In this document: positions 4,250-11,984 of the stretch, piece by piece
Layout of the letters: the number at the start of each line of letters is the position of its first letter
How positions within the stretch are numbered: position 1 is the first letter of the stretch
DNA from: Promethearchaeota archaeon
Lineage (GTDB): Archaea > Asgardarchaeota > Lokiarchaeia > Sigyniarchaeales > SOKP01
Length of the DNA: 64,000 bases
Direction of reading: 5' to 3'
NCBI GenBank assembly: GCA_030603385.1
Contig: JAUVXW010000012.1
Coordinates: 28,015 to 92,014, forward strand
Program-made: the position numbers and the translations under genes
Notes under the pieces: generated by a model
Told to the model about the DNA's origin: nothing
What the model saw: only the letters and a program-made list of their open reading frames with translations
The model's database searches: none

Positions 4250-4525
4250 TTAGGCACTAAGCAAACGGAACAATATTGAAGCATGTGGTATAAAGAACTC
4301 ATCTTTCCTCTTTATCACCACTGTGTGAAAATACTCAGCAAGGCCGAGAAAACCTCGAATTACTGATTCATCTTCTTCAAACCTGAAAATTACTGAAGCG
4401 ATAGCTGCTCCCGTACTGAAATTGACCTTATCATACACTCTCTCATCAATCAAAGGAATTTTGAGTTCATTGACAATTTCATAGACCCTTTTTATGAAAA
4501 GTTCTCTCTTTGGCATTTTAATCAA
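4250..4525 (-). CDS. Hypothetical protein, divergent from the proline-rich gene
   Basis: 91 aa ORF with globular alpha/beta-like composition. Confidence 0.65.
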   Translation of the reverse strand: MIKMPKRELFIKRVYEIVNELKIPLIDERVYDKVNFSTGAAIASVIFRFEEDESVIRGFLGLAEYFHTVVIKRKDEFFIPHASILFRLLSA

Positions 4526-4781: not shown

Positions 4782-5480
4782 GTGGTTTCAAAAGAGCATA
4801 AAAAAATCGAACGCGTTATAAATTTTATGAAAAAGGGGTTAACTTCTTTAGCTGATGATCTCGATGAAACAGTTAAAGGAATTAATGATTTTATTAAATC
4901 TTTGGGTAAAGCTCAAAAGGATTTGAAGGAAATTACTGTTGGAGAAGTAATCCAAACAGTCAGTACTTCCTCGAAAAAAGTAGTAACAACCTCAACTGGC
5001 GAAGCGAAAACAGCAGCAGCTAGTACATTATTCACTTTATTGAGTGGAAGTGGTGGAGCACCCGCACCAGCAACACCTGCAGCTCCACCTGTGTCCGCAG
5101 TACCTGCACCACCTGCACCCCCTAGTGGAGGTGGGCCCCCAACTGCCCCACCAACTGGGCCACCGAAGGCAGGAGGAAGTCCTCCTAAAAGACCCAATTT
5201 ACCACCAGCACCAAGATTACCACCTAGTGGCGGTGGACCCCCAAAAGCACCTAGTGGACCACCCGGTGCACCACCAAAAGCCCCTGCTTTTGCTAAAAGA
5301 CCAGTAACGCCTGGTGCCCCACCCAGTGGAGGACCCCCTAGTGCGGGACCACCCAAACCCCCAGGAGCTCCAGCAGCAGCACCCGCGGCTGCAGCACAAG
5401 TCGGTGGAGGTTTAGGCTCACTAAGAGATGAAATGTTGGACGAGTTGAATAGATTAAAGAAAATTATGCGCGGAGAGTGA
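4782..5480 (+). CDS. Coiled-coil / proline-rich protein with C-terminal WH2-like motif (candidate actin regulator)
   Basis: N-terminal heptad region; long Pro/Gly/Ala tract; C-terminus SLRDEMLDELNRLKKI; GAGGA upstream of the GTG start. Confidence 0.7.
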   Translation: MVSKEHKKIERVINFMKKGLTSLADDLDETVKGINDFIKSLGKAQKDLKEITVGEVIQTVSTSSKKVVTTSTGEAKTAAASTLFTLLSGSGGAPAPATPAAPPVSAVPAPPAPPSGGGPPTAPPTGPPKAGGSPPKRPNLPPAPRLPPSGGGPPKAPSGPPGAPPKAPAFAKRPVTPGAPPSGGPPSAGPPKPPGAPAAAPAAAAQVGGGLGSLRDEMLDELNRLKKIMRGE

Positions 5481-5509
5481 CCAATTCTTCGGTCTGGCAG
5501 AGTTGGTCA
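5478..5509 (+). terminator. Stem-loop starting at the stop codon of the proline-rich gene
   Basis: TGACCAATTCT (5478-5488) pairs with AGAGTTGGTCA (5499-5509): 11 bp with one G-U pair, 10-nt loop. Confidence 0.4.
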
Positions 5510-5834
5510 ACACGGTTCGCATCCAAGGCAATAAGTTTAACAGAAATACGTCCTACTCCATGTAAAAGCTTTTTTTCTTAAAATATATTTTTCTCTAATT
5601 TTCTGATTAATTTTGAGACATATATTAACTTGAGAGTGTTCTTCGCCCCTCACGGCAAAACAATAGCAATCAAGCTGGTTATGAGAATTAAAGACCTGTA
5701 CTGCATTTCCAAGCGTAATCACCACAATGTCAGATTCTTCTATATCATCTTTCGCATTAGATACTTGCCTTTCTAATAACCCTAATCGCTCCAGTATTCT
5801 TTCTAACAAATCTCCAGAAAAAGCTAAAAGATTC

Positions 5835-5908
5835 TTTGATTCTGTACAGGCAGACTTGGAAGAATTGAATGATGAAGATTAAATACGCTAGTAAAATATA
5901 TTAATATA
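5835..5908 (+). repeat. Direct repeat copy A (orphan gene 3' end FDSVQADLEELNDED*)
   Basis: 66/74 nt identical to 8548-8621 by manual alignment. Confidence 0.9.
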
Positions 5909-5983
5909 TTTGGATTAAATTTCAGGATTGCCACTAACTATTTTATATAACATAAGTTATAGATCTATGTTCTGATTACATAA

Positions 5984-8560
5984 GTGTTAAATACAAAAGA
6001 TCCAATTCTTTATTATAATTCAATGACTTTTTTGTGGAATCGAATGAAAGAACACACAATATCAAAATTAGTTTTAATTATAGTAGGAATATTATTTGCT
6101 TCAATACATATTAATGGCAATAAGAAAGTTCTTAATATTATAAATGAAGAAAATCAAATTGAAAGAGATTATTTAGAAAGTGCTAATGATAATTGGGAGC
6201 CAGAACTCACTAGATCTGTTGGAGATGAGCCTCATAGTGTGTTTGTTGGTGATGCGAATAATGATGGGTATAACGATATTGTAACCTCTAATGTGAATGA
6301 TGATGATGTTTCAATTCTTTTATGGAATCCAATCTCGAGCGATTGGTATGCACAATTCACGAAACCTGTTGGTGATGGACCTGATGAAGTTTTTATTGGT
6401 GATGCGAATAATGATAGGTATAATGATATTGTAACCGTTAATATGTTTAGTGATGATGTCTCAATTTTATTATGGAATCCAATCTCGGGTGATTGGGATC
6501 CACAAATTACAAAAGCAGTCGGAGATTGGCCTTCAGGCCTATTTATAGGAGATGCAAATAATGATGGGTATAATGATATTATAAACACCAATAGCCAACT
6601 TGATGACACTGTTTCAATTCTTTTATGGAATCCAGCATCGGGTGATTGGGATCCACAAATTACAAAATCTGTTGGAAATGGTCCTTCAAGCTCATTTATA
6701 GGTGATGCGAATAATGATGGGTATAATGATATAGTAACCGCTAATTTTTATGATGACGATGTTTCAATTCTTTTATGGAATCCAATATCAGGAGATTGGG
6801 ATGCACAATTCACGAAAACTGTTGGAGATACTCCTACTAGTGTTTTTATTGGTGATGCGAATAATGATGGGTACAATGATATTGCAGCCGCAAGTTTTGG
6901 GTATGATTATGTCTCAATTCTTTTATGGAATCCAATATCGGGAGATTGGGACGAACAACTCAAGGGACCTGTTGGGGATCAACCTGTTTGTGTTTTTATT
7001 GGTGATGCGAATAATGATGGGTATAATGATATTGTAAGTGCTAATCAATGGGATGATACTGCTTCAGTTATTTTATGGAATCCGATATCGGGTGATTGGG
7101 ATGCACAATTCACGAAACCTGTTGGAGAACATCCTTATAGTGTTTCTATTGGTGATGCGAATAATGATGGGTATAATGATATTGTAACCGCAAATATTGT
7201 GGATGATGATATTTCTATTTATTTATGGCGTTATGTGACACCTTCCATTGTGTTACAAACACCAGAAAATAAAGTTTATAAAGCCCCGATGAGCGGATAT
7301 TATCCTGCAACCTATGGATTTGAAAAAAGCGAGATTGGAACTGTTCCGAAAGGATGGTTAAATACTAGTGAATCAGGATGTTCAGTGGAAGTTATTGAAG
7401 AAGTTGGGAATCATAGAAATGTTGTTGAGCTTTATGATCATAGTAATACAACAAGAAGCCACATTTTTAATTCTTTTTCATTGAAATCTCATGGTACAGT
7501 TGAATTTTACATGAGGGCTACCAGTGTGGGATGGTTCTCAGAAGTTTATCTAAGTAAGGAGGGTACTCATTTATTTAGGGTATTGTTTGGTGGTCATTAC
7601 CTCCGAATTTTTAACAATACACAAATTGTAAACTTACTAAATGTGAGTACTCATCAGTGGTATCACATACGCGTTGATTTCCGATGTAGAGCCGCTCCTG
7701 AATACATGGGATTGAATGAGAAGCGATTCAAGATTCATGTTAACGGTCAGGAGTTCGGGCCATATATCATATACAATGACCGCTCACACGCGGGAGTGAA
7801 TAGGATGAATGTCTGGACGGGGGAATACCAACACGATTATCGTTTATATGTGGATGATATTGGATATTCATGGGATCCCAATTATGATATCGGAGATAAT
7901 TTGAATGAGGGATTATTGCTTAGTTTTGATAAGAATTACCCATTTAATTGGATAGGGTATTCTATTGATGGGCTTGCTAGTAAAGCAATTCTGGGTAATG
8001 TATCAATTCCTTTTCCCGAAGATGGTCCACATTCAATACTAGTATTCGGTAAGGATTCTATTGGAAATCTCTATCAATCAGATCCAAGAAATTTTTCAGT
8101 TGATACCCAAATCCCTGAATTCATACAGGTAGAGATTATTTACCAATTTTATTCATTGGATCATTTTAATATAACACTTTTCGTGTCTGATGAGTATGAA
8201 AAGGGTTTAGGGACAGCAAATATTAAAATGTGGTGGGATGGAAATAATGTCTCTGATGATGTTAGAAATTTAGGAGATGGTTATTATTTCATTTCATTAG
8301 AACCTATAACAATCCCTCCAGGGGAAGATCCAATCTTATTAAACATGACAATCTCTGCCACCGGATATAAAGATGAATACTTCGAAGCATATATTACCAT
8401 AGATCCTGATACTTTGGATAAAAATCTCGGAAAAAGTCCTCCAGACGTTCTACTCTTAATACTCATTATAGCAATCACATCAATCATAGGGGGAATCGGA
8501 GTAGCAGTAATTACCGTATTTCTATTGCGAAAAAAAAGCCGATTAAATTTGATACTGTAA
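5984..8560 (+). CDS. FG-GAP/VCBS-repeat beta-propeller cell-surface protein with C-terminal TM anchor
   Basis: Seven ~50-aa repeats carrying GDANNDGYND (DxNxDG Ca-binding loop), then beta-rich domains, a TM helix and an RKK tail; true start may be the internal MKEHT. Confidence 0.85.
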   Translation: MLNTKDPILYYNSMTFLWNRMKEHTISKLVLIIVGILFASIHINGNKKVLNIINEENQIERDYLESANDNWEPELTRSVGDEPHSVFVGDANNDGYNDIVTSNVNDDDVSILLWNPISSDWYAQFTKPVGDGPDEVFIGDANNDRYNDIVTVNMFSDDVSILLWNPISGDWDPQITKAVGDWPSGLFIGDANNDGYNDIINTNSQLDDTVSILLWNPASGDWDPQITKSVGNGPSSSFIGDANNDGYNDIVTANFYDDDVSILLWNPISGDWDAQFTKTVGDTPTSVFIGDANNDGYNDIAAASFGYDYVSILLWNPISGDWDEQLKGPVGDQPVCVFIGDANNDGYNDIVSANQWDDTASVILWNPISGDWDAQFTKPVGEHPYSVSIGDANNDGYNDIVTANIVDDDISIYLWRYVTPSIVLQTPENKVYKAPMSGYYPATYGFEKSEIGTVPKGWLNTSESGCSVEVIEEVGNHRNVVELYDHSNTTRSHIFNSFSLKSHGTVEFYMRATSVGWFSEVYLSKEGTHLFRVLFGGHYLRIFNNTQIVNLLNVSTHQWYHIRVDFRCRAAPEYMGLNEKRFKIHVNGQEFGPYIIYNDRSHAGVNRMNVWTGEYQHDYRLYVDDIGYSWDPNYDIGDNLNEGLLLSFDKNYPFNWIGYSIDGLASKAILGNVSIPFPEDGPHSILVFGKDSIGNLYQSDPRNFSVDTQIPEFIQVEIIYQFYSLDHFNITLFVSDEYEKGLGTANIKMWWDGNNVSDDVRNLGDGYYFISLEPITIPPGEDPILLNMTISATGYKDEYFEAYITIDPDTLDKNLGKSPPDVLLLILIIAITSIIGGIGVAVITVFLLRKKSRLNLIL
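6192..7228 (+). repeat. Seven tandem ~150-bp intragenic repeats (FG-GAP blades)
   Basis: ggtgatgcgaataatgatgggta(t/c)aa(t/c)gatat recurs near-identically at ~150-nt spacing. Confidence 0.9.
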
Positions 8561-8621
8561 AGGCAGATTTGGAAGAATTGAATGATGAAGATTAGATTCA
8601 CTAGTAGAATGTATTAATATA
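8548..8621 (+). repeat. Direct repeat copy B (FDTVKADLEELNDED*), overlapping the FG-GAP stop codon
   Basis: 66/74 nt identical to 5835-5908. Confidence 0.9.
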
Positions 8622-8696
8622 AATCAGTTGTTCAATTTTTTCTTTATATATTTTCCTTCTATTAGTTCATAAAATCGGTTTTAATGTGAAGTATAA

Positions 8697-9011
8697 GTGC
8701 CTGCGATGCAAGATCCTCATAGAAAAAGAACCTTCACCCTCATCCTTTCTCTTTATTTTAGTATCTATTTTTGCTTAAGTACGATTCCCGCTAATATTGA
8801 CAACTTAATTGCTACGTTTGGAGATATCGCCCAATTTGGAATAGGCATAGTGATAATCTGTAAATTACTAGCAGGTACAATCAGCATGCTTTTATTTGGA
8901 TACTATACCGAATATTTTTCAAGAAGAAGTTTAATTAAACTGTGTATCGAAAACTATTCATTAATTTTAAATACTTTTAAAGCAGAAATAAAGATATGTC
9001 AAACGAAATAG
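8697..9011 (+). pseudogene. 5' fragment of an MFS transporter
   Basis: Two TM helices followed by FGYYTEYFSRR (MFS motif A-like), then the sequence degenerates. Confidence 0.55.
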
Positions 9012-10159
9012 AAGTAAAAGGTAATACTGATCCAAAATTTGAGACTATAAAAGACGTGTTTAAGGAGAATTTTAAGGAATTTAACGAAATAGGTGCATCT
9101 TTTGCAGTTTTTCTAGACAACAAATTCGTTGTAGATATTTGGGGGGGATATTCAAACCCAGAAAAAACTAAACTATGGAATAAAGATTCAATCACTAAAG
9201 TATATTCGACTAATAAAATTATAACTGCCATTTGTGCTCTTATTCTAGTAGATAAAGAATTATTAGATCTGGATGCACCCGTTGCAAAGTACTGGCCCGA
9301 ATTTGCGCAATCGGGTAAGGAAAAATTACCTGTACGTTATCTATTTAGTCATTCAGCAGGTCTTCCTGGTTTTGATGAAAAAATTACAGTTGAGGATTTG
9401 AAAGATTGGAACAAAATAGTCAATATTTTAGCAAGACAAAAACCGTGGTGGGAACCTGGAACAAAAATAGGTTACCATGCAACTACCATGTATTATTTAC
9501 TTGGAGAATTGGTGAGGAGGATATCAGGAAAACCAATAAGTCAATTTTTCGGAGAAGAAATCGCAGAACCCTTCAATGTTGATTATCATATCATGTTGCC
9601 AGAAAAATTCAGAACAAACTTCGCAGATATGATTCCCGCAAGTAGTTCGATAAGTTCGATTGTATGGGAAAATATTGATCGTAACTCAGTTATTTTTAGA
9701 GTTTGGTCTAATCCGGATTTAAGTAACGTACATGATAATGATTCAATATGGTTTGATATTGAAACTCGAGGCTTTGGCAATGCAAGATCCGTAGCAAAGA
9801 TAGGATCAATTATCGCTAACGGGGGAATTTTGGATGGAACTCAAATTTTATCAGCAAAAACGATTGCAAAATCTATAGAAGAACAAATTTTTGACATTGA
9901 TCTCGTATTGGCCGCTAAAATTCGATATGGATTGGGTTGGGGGCTGAAAACTGATTATCATTCTTTTCCGAATCCAAATACGGCTTACTGGGGGGGCATG
10001 GGAGGGTCTTCACTCATAATGGATTTAGATAATAAGATGAGCATAGCGTACGTTATGAACCAGATGCGGACTCAACCATTGAATGAAACCCGAAAAAATA
10101 GATACACCTCCGATAGTAGGGGAAATCGTCTTGTAAAGAAAATTTACGAGCTTTTTTAA
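8996..10159 (+). CDS. Serine hydrolase, beta-lactamase class C / family VIII esterase
   Basis: SxxK (STNK), LDLDAPVAKYWPEF, LFSHSAGL, PGTKIGYHA, WGGMGGS. Confidence 0.9.
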   Translation: MSNEIEVKGNTDPKFETIKDVFKENFKEFNEIGASFAVFLDNKFVVDIWGGYSNPEKTKLWNKDSITKVYSTNKIITAICALILVDKELLDLDAPVAKYWPEFAQSGKEKLPVRYLFSHSAGLPGFDEKITVEDLKDWNKIVNILARQKPWWEPGTKIGYHATTMYYLLGELVRRISGKPISQFFGEEIAEPFNVDYHIMLPEKFRTNFADMIPASSSISSIVWENIDRNSVIFRVWSNPDLSNVHDNDSIWFDIETRGFGNARSVAKIGSIIANGGILDGTQILSAKTIAKSIEEQIFDIDLVLAAKIRYGLGWGLKTDYHSFPNPNTAYWGGMGGSSLIMDLDNKMSIAYVMNQMRTQPLNETRKNRYTSDSRGNRLVKKIYELF

Positions 10160-10413
10160 AATTTTTTTTACAATAAAGCCTTAAATGATTTTCTGATATT
10201 TTTACCTTTACAAGAAATATTATGTCCTTAACGTATTGATATTATAAAATTTTTTAAAGATAAAAAAGAGTCTTATATTAAAGGTCAGAAAGAGTCTTAG
10301 AAACGATATATTCATCATAGAAAGTTTTGTTAGTGTAATATTAATTAAGATATTTAGGATTATAATATAATATTAGAAATTAAATAGTAGACAAGATATT
10401 TTCGAAGGGAAGA

Positions 10414-11535
10414 ATGGGAAATCTTACTGTCGTAATGGATATAGGCCAGTTTTCTACCAAAATAGGATTTGCAGGAGAAGATTCACCTAATCAAGTATTT
10501 TTAACGATGGTTGGGAAACCAAAATATCAAAGCGTAAGCATCGATTATGCACCTCCAAAAGCTCGAGAAGAAGATTTTTATGTGGGGGATGAAATCCAAT
10601 CTATCGGTTTATATAAGATTTTTCACCCTATTGAAAAAGGGATTATTATTGATTGGAAGCATTTTGAAAACATTATAGATTATATCTTTTATAACTTAAG
10701 AGTTGATCCTACTCTTGTTAATGTACTATTCTCAGTTCATCCATTGTTTCCATACAAAGATTTAGAAAAAATTTTTGAGCTCTTTTTAGAAAAGTATCAA
10801 TGTATGGCATTCTATCCTGTTTTAGGCTCAATGTTAACCTTATATTCAGGAGGATTCCAAACAGGATTGATTATCGAAATTGGGGATAGTAATACAAGAA
10901 TTGTTCCAATCTATGAAGGTTATAAGTTGGAACATGCAGTAAGAATTTTAGATATTGGAGGGAGAGTTTTAACTCACTATATGGAACAAATATTAGAATC
11001 TATTGGTTGGTCTGTTGATTCATCTATTCGAAGAGAACTAGTTAGGGTATTAAAAGAGAAAGCTTGTTTTGTTTCATTAGACTATAAAGAAGACTTAAAA
11101 AGAAGTGAACAATATAATAAAGAATACTCTTTACCGGATGGTTCTACAATCTCATTGAGTAATGAAAGATTTATGGTACCTGAATTATTATTTAATCCGT
11201 CTTCTGAATTAGAGGAGGACTCACTGCCAGTGGCAGTTATGGATGTAGTGGAAGCTTGTGATTTAGATATACGTCCGGAATTATTGAACAATATTTTTTT
11301 ATCGGGAGGTTCTTCGATGTTTCCAAATTTAAAATCAAGAATGTATCAAGAATTGGAACTCGAATTAGCCAGGAGGAAAAAGAAAAATCAGGTTGTAAGA
11401 ATCATTGCCCCAAGAGAGAGAACTTTTTCTGTTTGGGTAGGAGGCTCTATTCTAGCTATGATACCAGAATTCTCAGAAAATTGGGTAACTAGAGAAAAGT
11501 ATTTTAAAGAAGGAATTCCCCCAAATTTGTTATAG
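10414..11535 (+). CDS. Divergent actin-family protein (Asgard actin-related protein)
   Basis: DIGQFSTKIGFAGEDSP, EIGDSNTRIVPIYEGY, KEKACFV, YSLPDG, ERFMVPELLFNP, LSGGSSMFP and APRERTFSVWVGGSILA are colinear with actin; 373 aa. Confidence 0.95.
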   Translation: MGNLTVVMDIGQFSTKIGFAGEDSPNQVFLTMVGKPKYQSVSIDYAPPKAREEDFYVGDEIQSIGLYKIFHPIEKGIIIDWKHFENIIDYIFYNLRVDPTLVNVLFSVHPLFPYKDLEKIFELFLEKYQCMAFYPVLGSMLTLYSGGFQTGLIIEIGDSNTRIVPIYEGYKLEHAVRILDIGGRVLTHYMEQILESIGWSVDSSIRRELVRVLKEKACFVSLDYKEDLKRSEQYNKEYSLPDGSTISLSNERFMVPELLFNPSSELEEDSLPVAVMDVVEACDLDIRPELLNNIFLSGGSSMFPNLKSRMYQELELELARRKKKNQVVRIIAPRERTFSVWVGGSILAMIPEFSENWVTREKYFKEGIPPNLL

Positions 11536-11645: not shown

Positions 11646-11984
11646 ATGGAAGAATTTAAAAACGACAATTTTTATAAACCTGGTTATTCCATTTTATTTA
11701 ATAAAATCAAAGATATCAAAACTCCAATAAAAAATGAAATTCTTATGTCTCTATTAGATGGTCATTGGCATTCTGAGCTTGAATTAATAAGAATTACTAA
11801 GAAACAACATGGATTTATTGGTGCGGTTACTTTAGGAACTATGATAAACTCGTTGAACCACATGATTAAAAATAATTATTTGGAAAAGAAGATAGTAAAT
11901 AATAAACTTTACTACAAAATTTCAGATAATTACGTAGGCTTAACTAGAGCAGCTTATCGATTTGATGCAAAGCGGTTCTTTTAG
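11646..11984 (+). CDS. Winged helix-turn-helix protein
   Basis: EILMSLLDG..HSELEL.. helix-turn-helix, YLEKK..LYYKI wing. Confidence 0.6.
   Translation: MEEFKNDNFYKPGYSILFNKIKDIKTPIKNEILMSLLDGHWHSELELIRITKKQHGFIGAVTLGTMINSLNHMIKNNYLEKKIVNNKLYYKISDNYVGLTRAAYRFDAKRFF

Follow-up and report, generated by a model that had tools for sequence, protein, structure and literature searches.

Asgard archaea encode actin, profilin, gelsolin and actin-related proteins (ARPs), and to our knowledge neither a proline-rich regulator nor a nucleation-promoting factor (NPF) has been found among them. In Pyrobaculum, the last 17 residues of arcadin-2 bind the hydrophobic groove of crenactin at 31 nM and depolymerise crenactin (Izore et al., PMC5173319; PDB 5LY3). 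A second type of C-terminal helix is the Leu-rich, MIM1-like one of Asgard Vps2/24/46; like the proline-rich, MIM2-like motifs of Vps20/32/60, which are likewise ESCRT-III proteins, it binds the MIT domain of Vps4 (PMC7240154). Here, we report on a locus of Lokiarchaeia lying in a 64,000-nt stretch of contig JAUVXW010000012.1 (assembly GCA_030603385.1), which is the window whose positions are used as coordinates throughout. This locus holds a gene for a proline-rich protein of 232 amino acids (aa), belonging to an undescribed, Asgard-only family (4782-5480, + strand) and referred to below as the adaptor, and the gene for a divergent, ARP-like actin paralog of 373 aa (10414-11535, + strand). 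An earlier note on this DNA had placed the two genes about 5 kb apart on the + strand, which agrees with the 4,933 bp now measured between them, and had seen in them an archaeal nucleation/elongation module with a polyproline, WH2-like gene at its head. The polyproline architecture proved real and conserved across the family. Taken as a whole, the analysis describes the 232-aa protein as a conserved Lokiarchaeia scaffold or adaptor with a putative docking function, a role in actin biology being one possibility; located near an ARP gene in one genus only, it stands as a candidate cytoskeleton adaptor and not as a demonstrated actin-nucleation module.

The adaptor family was detected by six-frame search in 56 of 61 related genomes, comprising 34 of the 36 congeners and all 14 genomes of the sister family; the remaining carriers come from three other families of the same class. 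One ortholog is that of Lokiarchaeum ossiferum (G055:C1:729373-730161). In an exhaustive HMMER search of 1.84 billion proteins, the family amounted to only 41 cluster representatives; its ESM Atlas entry is an unnamed Promethearchaeota cluster, and our literature search found no paper describing it. The gene begins with GTG, and this start is confirmed by two congeners, which have ATG at that codon. Four parts, all encoded on the + strand, were resolved from an alignment of 31 diverse members in combination with an AlphaFold2 (AF2) model. The first is a long N-terminal helix (aa 2-50; 4785-4931), modeled with a pLDDT of ~96 and conserved across the family, which probably oligomerises or anchors the protein. 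A short, likewise conserved amphipathic helix (aa 74-87; 5001-5042) with the motif AAxxLFxLLsG follows, and leads into a disordered, proline-rich arm of ~120 residues (aa 88-210; 5043-5411) that combines GPPKAP-type repeats with the conserved motifs LPPxPKLPP and FAKRP; the proline codons of this tract account for a local spike in GC content (0.57 vs ~0.30). The protein closes with a near-invariant, putative docking helix of 19 aa (aa 211-229; 5412-5468), LRDEMLDELNRLKKIM, modeled with a pLDDT of ~90. No other part of the protein is as conserved as this end helix, summarized as L-R-D-E-M-L-x-E-L-x-R-L-K-K-I-M, whose hydrophobic stripe spans five helical turns. A separate observation concerns a metagenomic relative of 549 aa (P0002), which bears an N-terminal transmembrane helix and, in a C-terminal extension beyond the end helix, a TIR domain; this extension may represent either a genuine fusion or an artefact of read-through.

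A profile of the end helix, searched against the ~5,800 open reading frames (ORFs) of this genome, produced significant matches in two other protein families. The stronger one was to a 149-aa zinc-ribbon protein (G000:C55:21794-22240, equivalent to L077:3992-4435, minus strand; 22 bits, E 3e-5), which is homologous to the metagenomic protein P0040 (354 aa). In P0040, three end helices stand in tandem with proline-rich linkers between them and a further C-terminal domain behind, and the long N-terminal helix of the adaptor is absent; its genomic context offered nothing informative. The zinc-ribbon family consists of small proteins joining the end helix to a CPxCG...CCxC zinc ribbon. The suggestion that a single family might carry either the helix or its receptor was dropped, as P0040 is unrelated to the MIT-like 457-aa protein of this genome. 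The second match lies in the C-terminal tail of a Sec23/24-like protein (G000:C4:200430-202085; 16.5 bits, E 2e-3), composed of a zinc finger, a trunk and a beta-sandwich, whose gene (L076:4031-5686) adjoins that of a Ras-family GTPase. In its tail, the helix copy SLRDEMLGEMKHLKSV is followed by an acidic and then by a basic stretch. This protein is patchily distributed (19 of 61 genomes), and conservation of its helix is limited to the genus. Since the end helix recurs in the zinc-ribbon family and in the Sec23/24-like tail, it is, judged by sequence, a portable module, with docking as its putative function. Among the longer proteins (407-2000 aa) of a 5.8-billion-protein set, a search for the end helix found none at E<=0.01, a result of little weight given the very short query.

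These features are consistent with a protein in which the N-terminal helix would oligomerise or anchor the adaptor, the proline-rich arm would act as a flexible tether, and the end helix would dock into a groove of some highly conserved partner. As the single most likely partner, we tentatively put forward an actin-family protein, be it Lokiactin or the neighboring ARP, whose hydrophobic (barbed-end) groove would receive the helix. Docking of this kind is proposed because the C-terminal helix of arcadin-2 binds crenactin in this way and WH2 helices bind actin in this way, and the actin-family groove is ranked first because of gene order. The adaptor would then tether or sequester actin subunits rather than act as a genuine nucleation-promoting factor of the WH2 or VCA type. 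A conserved C-terminal helix behind a non-conserved linker, which is the mark of arcadin-2-like regulators, was indeed found in the adaptor. By analogy, the tandem helices and proline-rich linkers of P0040 resemble multivalent actin binders, and we count them in favor of an actin partner. A fuller version, in which the adaptor would be an oligomeric tether and the first archaeal proline-rich actin regulator, setting its end helix on the barbed-end groove of Lokiactin and/or the ARP while the proline arm recruits further factors, appears considerably less probable.

The gene order behind this ranking was established by combining the searches for the adaptor and for the ARP in the related genomes. 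Both genes are present in 33 other congeners. In 29 of these, the adaptor gene lies upstream of the ARP gene on the same strand and contig, separated by 129-478 bp in 19 genomes and by 871-1,125 bp in the other 10 (129-1,125 bp overall); in the remaining four congeners, the two genes are on different contigs. Because these 29 congeners are short-gapped, and because the FG-GAP gene and the esterase gene found between the two genes here are absent from that interval in the congeners examined, the 4.9 kb of the present genome is an insertion; conservation with congeners is confined to the 110-190 bp immediately preceding the ARP start. The corresponding promoter-like region (10228-10413, + strand) is 74-85% identical in three congeners and includes a conserved AT-rich block. 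Of the 10 congeners with a long gap, at least 6 (L007, L009, L010, L011, L023 and L024) have a 250-aa PIG-L/LmbE-like deacetylase gene inside the adaptor-ARP interval, and in g5, a genus of the sister family, its ortholog (60% identical; L066:5217-5966, L067:3231-3977) precedes the ARP gene by 2-30 bp. The pairing of PIG-L with ARP is thus older and tighter than that of adaptor with ARP. The ancestral order was likely adaptor, PIG-L, ARP, and the direct adjacency of adaptor and ARP is probably derived, through loss of PIG-L, because the PIG-L gene stands between the two in congeners and beside ARP in another family. The ancestral adjacency asserted in the earlier note was therefore retained in part: the genes were neighbors before the insertion, as they are in 29 congeners, but the linkage ends at the genus and PIG-L probably stood between them. 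The evidence for a functional module is genus-level gene order only.

The neighboring actin was examined for its relationship to the described actins. The 373-aa protein matches Pfam Actin (PF00022) at 303 bits along the full profile (positions 6-401 of 410), and its best PDB matches are eukaryotic actins (E ~1e-87). The genome contains four actin-family genes, with the canonical Lokiactin on contig C18 (12777-13889). At 42% identity to this Lokiactin and with actin-profile scores of 299 vs 441 bits, the sequence identifies the 373-aa protein as an actin other than Lokiactin, so that the divergent actin gene claimed previously is borne out. The protein is the ortholog (51% identity) of UYP44126.1 of Lokiarchaeum ossiferum, one of the three non-Lokiactin actin homologs of that organism, which was placed among 'Asgard and eukaryotic ARPs' (Rodrigues-Oliveira et al., PMC9834061); these homologs are less transcribed than Lokiactin (PMC9834061). 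The ARP-like actin thus represents an already known gene family. Its alignment with yeast actin revealed replacements of the DNGSG loop by DIGQF, of Q137 by G, of H161 by R, of D154 by E and of H73 by K. Across 16 ARP orthologs, the R at the H161 position is invariant, while the Q137 position is either G or D, with D in most. From the replacement of the phosphate loop and of the Q137 and H161 residues, it follows that ATP hydrolysis is probably impaired. In the groove of the ARP clade, positions Y144, G147, I346, L347 and F353 are invariant, a point in favor of an actin-family partner. In most of the sister family, the ARP gene adjoins a Ras-family GTPase gene and a gene for a 460-aa protein with a zinc ribbon at its end; this setting is seen in five genomes from four genera (L068, L069, L070, L071 and L073), where a conserved protein of 80-95 aa stands on the other side. 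Directly 3' of the ARP gene of the window lies a 112-aa ORF (11646-11984, + strand), which keeps its position in congeners, is 69-79% identical to theirs over the first 29-43 aa and has no Pfam match.

Several observations weigh against an actin-family partner. Outside the genus, four genomes hold the adaptor and ARP genes on one contig, with 44, 70, ~100 and 273 kb between them; otherwise, the two genes are on separate contigs. Families f4, f6 and f7 have the adaptor, but their best matches to the ARP are only at the level of Lokiactin (44% or less), and no actin gene was found there beside the adaptor gene. Within the genus, the spacer between the two genes is an insertion hotspot, holding differing, unrelated genes in other congeners. 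Where the two genes are compactly arranged, the adaptor stop is followed by an oligo-T run and the ARP start is preceded by a conserved AT-rich block ~60 nt away, and this combination of a terminator-like run with a promoter-like block suggests two transcription units. Neither the Sec23/24-like nor the zinc-ribbon carriers of the end helix have a visible link to actin. A PDB sequence search with the last 29 residues of the adaptor found no similar chain at E<=10, and the Pfam WH2 profile (PF02205) matched 0 of 31 family members at E<=10. The LKKI of the adaptor also lies only 3 residues after the last hydrophobic residue of the helix, 3 fewer than in WH2, with no Gly, and the segment 211-229 including LKKIM is modeled as one continuous five-turn helix. 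Of the WH2-like C-terminus read in the earlier note, the LKKI helix is thus real and conserved, but the WH2 assignment is opposed by the lack of a Pfam match and by the single predicted helix that runs through LKKIM. A complex prediction of the ARP-like actin with adaptor residues 186-232, run without controls, returned ipSAE values of 0.02 and 0.01 (mark 0.32) and speaks neither for nor against the pairing.

Some of these same observations would be expected if the end helix bound a partner outside actin and ESCRT, which we consider possible, though doubtful: the 88-aa neighbor described below, a small-GTPase/Sec23-24-like trafficking component, or the adaptor's own N-terminal helix, with the actin neighborhood being inherited order without functional meaning. 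The insertion hotspot between adaptor and ARP would fit this explanation, as would the five-turn hydrophobic stripe, which is of the kind found in helix-bundle or coiled-coil packing, and the recurrence of the helix in a zinc-ribbon protein and in a Sec23/24-like tail beside a Ras-family GTPase. The most widely conserved neighbor of the adaptor gene is, moreover, not actin but the divergently oriented gene for this 88-aa protein (4250-4516, - strand), which adjoins the adaptor gene in f1, f6 and f7, is 3 kb away from it in G042, and lies 8-19 kb from the ARP gene in four f2 genomes. As it stands beside the adaptor in the former families and within that distance of the ARP in f2, the three genes are loosely tied together, which we count in favor of an actin-family partner. 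The 88-aa protein has 388 homologs, all of them unannotated, and its AF2 model is an alpha/beta structure with a pLDDT of 87. Foldseek returned no match in the PDB at E<=0.001, VIA-align wide gave no clear fold (best Z 4.4), and the Atlas offered only a generic ferredoxin-like or PilO/GspM-like resemblance (TM ~0.65). A Roadblock/LC7 fold, considered for this protein, was not borne out by the fold searches.

Each of these candidate partners meets its own difficulty. A paralog of the 88-aa protein (G000:C55:49434-49685; L154:5035-5283) heads a conserved block in which it is followed by a protein of 85-97 aa, TBP, an RPB9/TFS-type zinc ribbon and a CxxCxxCC protein, and no helix-bearing gene was found in the neighborhoods of this paralog. 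Because the paralog sits with TBP and the RPB9/TFS-type zinc ribbon, a housekeeping role is indicated, and we are cautious about the 88-aa protein as a dedicated partner. The Sec23/24-like protein occurs in 19 of 61 genomes, compared with 56 of 61 in the case of the adaptor, and outside the genus its helix is not conserved. Purely intramolecular docking is countered by P0040, which bears tandem end helices in a protein lacking the N-terminal helix.

An unlikely explanation, which nevertheless has several features in its favor, would make the end helix a MIM1-type motif docking onto the MIT domain of Vps4 or of another MIT protein, and the adaptor an ESCRT-associated adaptor or Vps4 client; the LPPxPKLPP motif of the arm might then be a MIM2-like second site. 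As in MIM1, the helix is located at the extreme C-terminus after a flexible linker, and its near-invariant positions M4, E7, L8, R10, L11 and K12 match positions that Lokiarchaeia ESCRT-III proteins conserve in their C-terminal helices. In two congeners, the ESCRT-III encoded beside Vps4 ends in ...EKELNRLKSDE, thereby sharing the hexapeptide ELNRLK with the end helix, and the ESCRT-III paralog of this genome ends in ...EIEKLRKELQS. When set against the pattern (D/E)xxLxxRLxxL(K/R), positions M4, L8, L11 and K12 of the end helix fit, and E replaces R7 as it does in the Lokiarchaeia ESCRT-III tails. As a candidate receptor, Vps4 was found in 52 of the 61 related genomes, and its MIT domain binds the MIM1/MIM2-like motifs of Asgard ESCRT-III (PMC7240154); in one congener, the Vps4 gene lies at L131:4295-5512 (minus strand), with the MIT domain in the first 80 residues. 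Against this stand the weakness of the best profile match to an ESCRT-III tail (8.9 bits, E 0.45, rank 5 of ~5,800 ORFs), which covers the second half of the helix only, and the fall of the other ESCRT-III tails into the noise of the search. At position 9, the genus and f6/f7 agree with the ESCRT-III tails, whereas f2 does not; the adaptor yielded no match to the Snf7 core (PF03357); no ESCRT gene was found beside the adaptor gene; and Vps4, searched with the Vps4_C profile, was not found in the 94%-complete assembly of this genome. We also observed that ~17 kb separate the only Snf7 match of this genome, a paralog not adjacent to Vps4, from the Sec23/24-like gene; eight congeners keep this distance.

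The strict version of the earlier proposal, in which the adaptor would deliver actin monomers through WH2 and activate the neighboring ARP for nucleation/elongation, is favored by an NPF-like order of parts (oligomerisation helix, proline tract, amphipathic LKKI helix) and by genus-wide adjacency to the ARP gene, but it is very improbable, because no member of the family has an acidic or Trp tail (the adaptor of the window reads ...LKKIMRGE at its C-terminus) and a separate connector helix is missing, because there is no WH2 match, and because the family extends to genomes in which no ARP ortholog was found; in addition, key residues for ATP hydrolysis have been replaced in the ARP itself.

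The DNA between the two genes contains the items previously listed for it, namely an orphan gene end, an FG-GAP gene in direct repeats, a fragment of a transporter of the major facilitator superfamily (MFS) type and an esterase, and their description as secondarily acquired was upheld, since none of the intervening genes occurs at this interval in the congeners examined. The orphan 3' gene end (5727-5882, + strand; 51 aa) has its last 48 nt inside the left copy (5835-5908) of a 74-bp direct repeat, whose right copy (8548-8621) is 89% identical. Flanked by these two copies is the inserted gene for an FG-GAP repeat surface protein of 858 aa (5984-8560, + strand), recognized by the Pfam profiles FG-GAP_3 and FG-GAP. 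Within this gene, positions 6192-7244 hold six overlapping copies of a 300-nt unit at a spacing of 150 nt, 61-80% identical to one another, which form near-regular blade repeats. Next comes a 104-aa N-terminal fragment of an MFS-type-looking transporter (8697-9011, + strand), identified by its likeness to an intact paralog: over 70 aa, it is 47% identical to the N-terminus of a 454-aa multi-pass transporter on contig C26, which itself looks MFS-type. The fragment is followed by the inserted gene for a beta-lactamase-fold esterase (8996-10159, + strand; PF00144, E 5e-61). Away from this genus, the surroundings of the adaptor gene differ. In the sister family, it is flanked by genes for adenylosuccinate synthetase and an Eco57I-like methylase, and distant relatives on short metagenome contigs have tRNA-intron endonuclease, PhoU_div and MoaE as neighbors, a context that is uninformative.

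With a putative assembly helix, a proline arm and an invariant, putative docking helix combined in a small and widely conserved protein, the adaptor offers a concrete and easily expressed candidate. If it were an actin regulator, the archaea most closely related to eukaryotes would possess a functional precursor of the Ena/VASP or WASP type of machinery. The identity of its partner would tell whether eukaryotes were preceded by eukaryotic-type regulation of actin assembly or by an adaptor for ESCRT/trafficking.

Compared with the known systems, the adaptor shares with WH2 proteins (WASP/WAVE/WIP, thymosin beta-4; PF02205) a proline tract, an amphipathic helix and an LKK[I/V/T] motif near the C-terminus. 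It differs from them in the distance from helix to LKK, which is 3 residues shorter, in the lack of a Gly break, with LKKIM incorporated into a continuous helix, and in the lack of an acidic/Trp tail. In the EVH2 region of Ena/VASP proteins, the F-actin-binding helix is preceded by a Gly run. The adaptor presumably has in common with EVH2 a Gly run followed by L-x-[DE]-E-M and a basic segment, as well as the union of a proline region and an oligomerisation helix, here within one small protein; what we take to be the Ena/VASP module order is reversed in it, and an EVH1 domain is lacking. With the MIM1 of ESCRT-III proteins (Vps2/24/46 class), it shares a Leu-rich amphipathic helix at the extreme C-terminus after a flexible linker, with the pattern phi4-E7-phi8-basic10-L11-K12, whereas it has no Snf7 core and no ESCRT gene neighborhood, and the profile similarity is weak (8.9 bits). 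In sequence terms, the end helix appears to resemble MIM1 about as well as it does WH2. Arcadin-2 and the adaptor are both archaeal and both encoded beside an actin homolog, in the case of the adaptor in 29 congeners of one genus and not elsewhere. In both, a core is joined through an unstructured, non-conserved linker to a small C-terminal helix that is conserved, and in arcadin-2 this helix carries the activity by itself (PMC5173319). No relationship in sequence is evident between the two proteins; the arcadin-2 helix relies on a tryptophan that is absent in the adaptor, and the adaptor linker is a long proline-rich repeat region. With these differences, arcadin-2 is, by analogy of architecture, the closest functional precedent for the adaptor in archaea.

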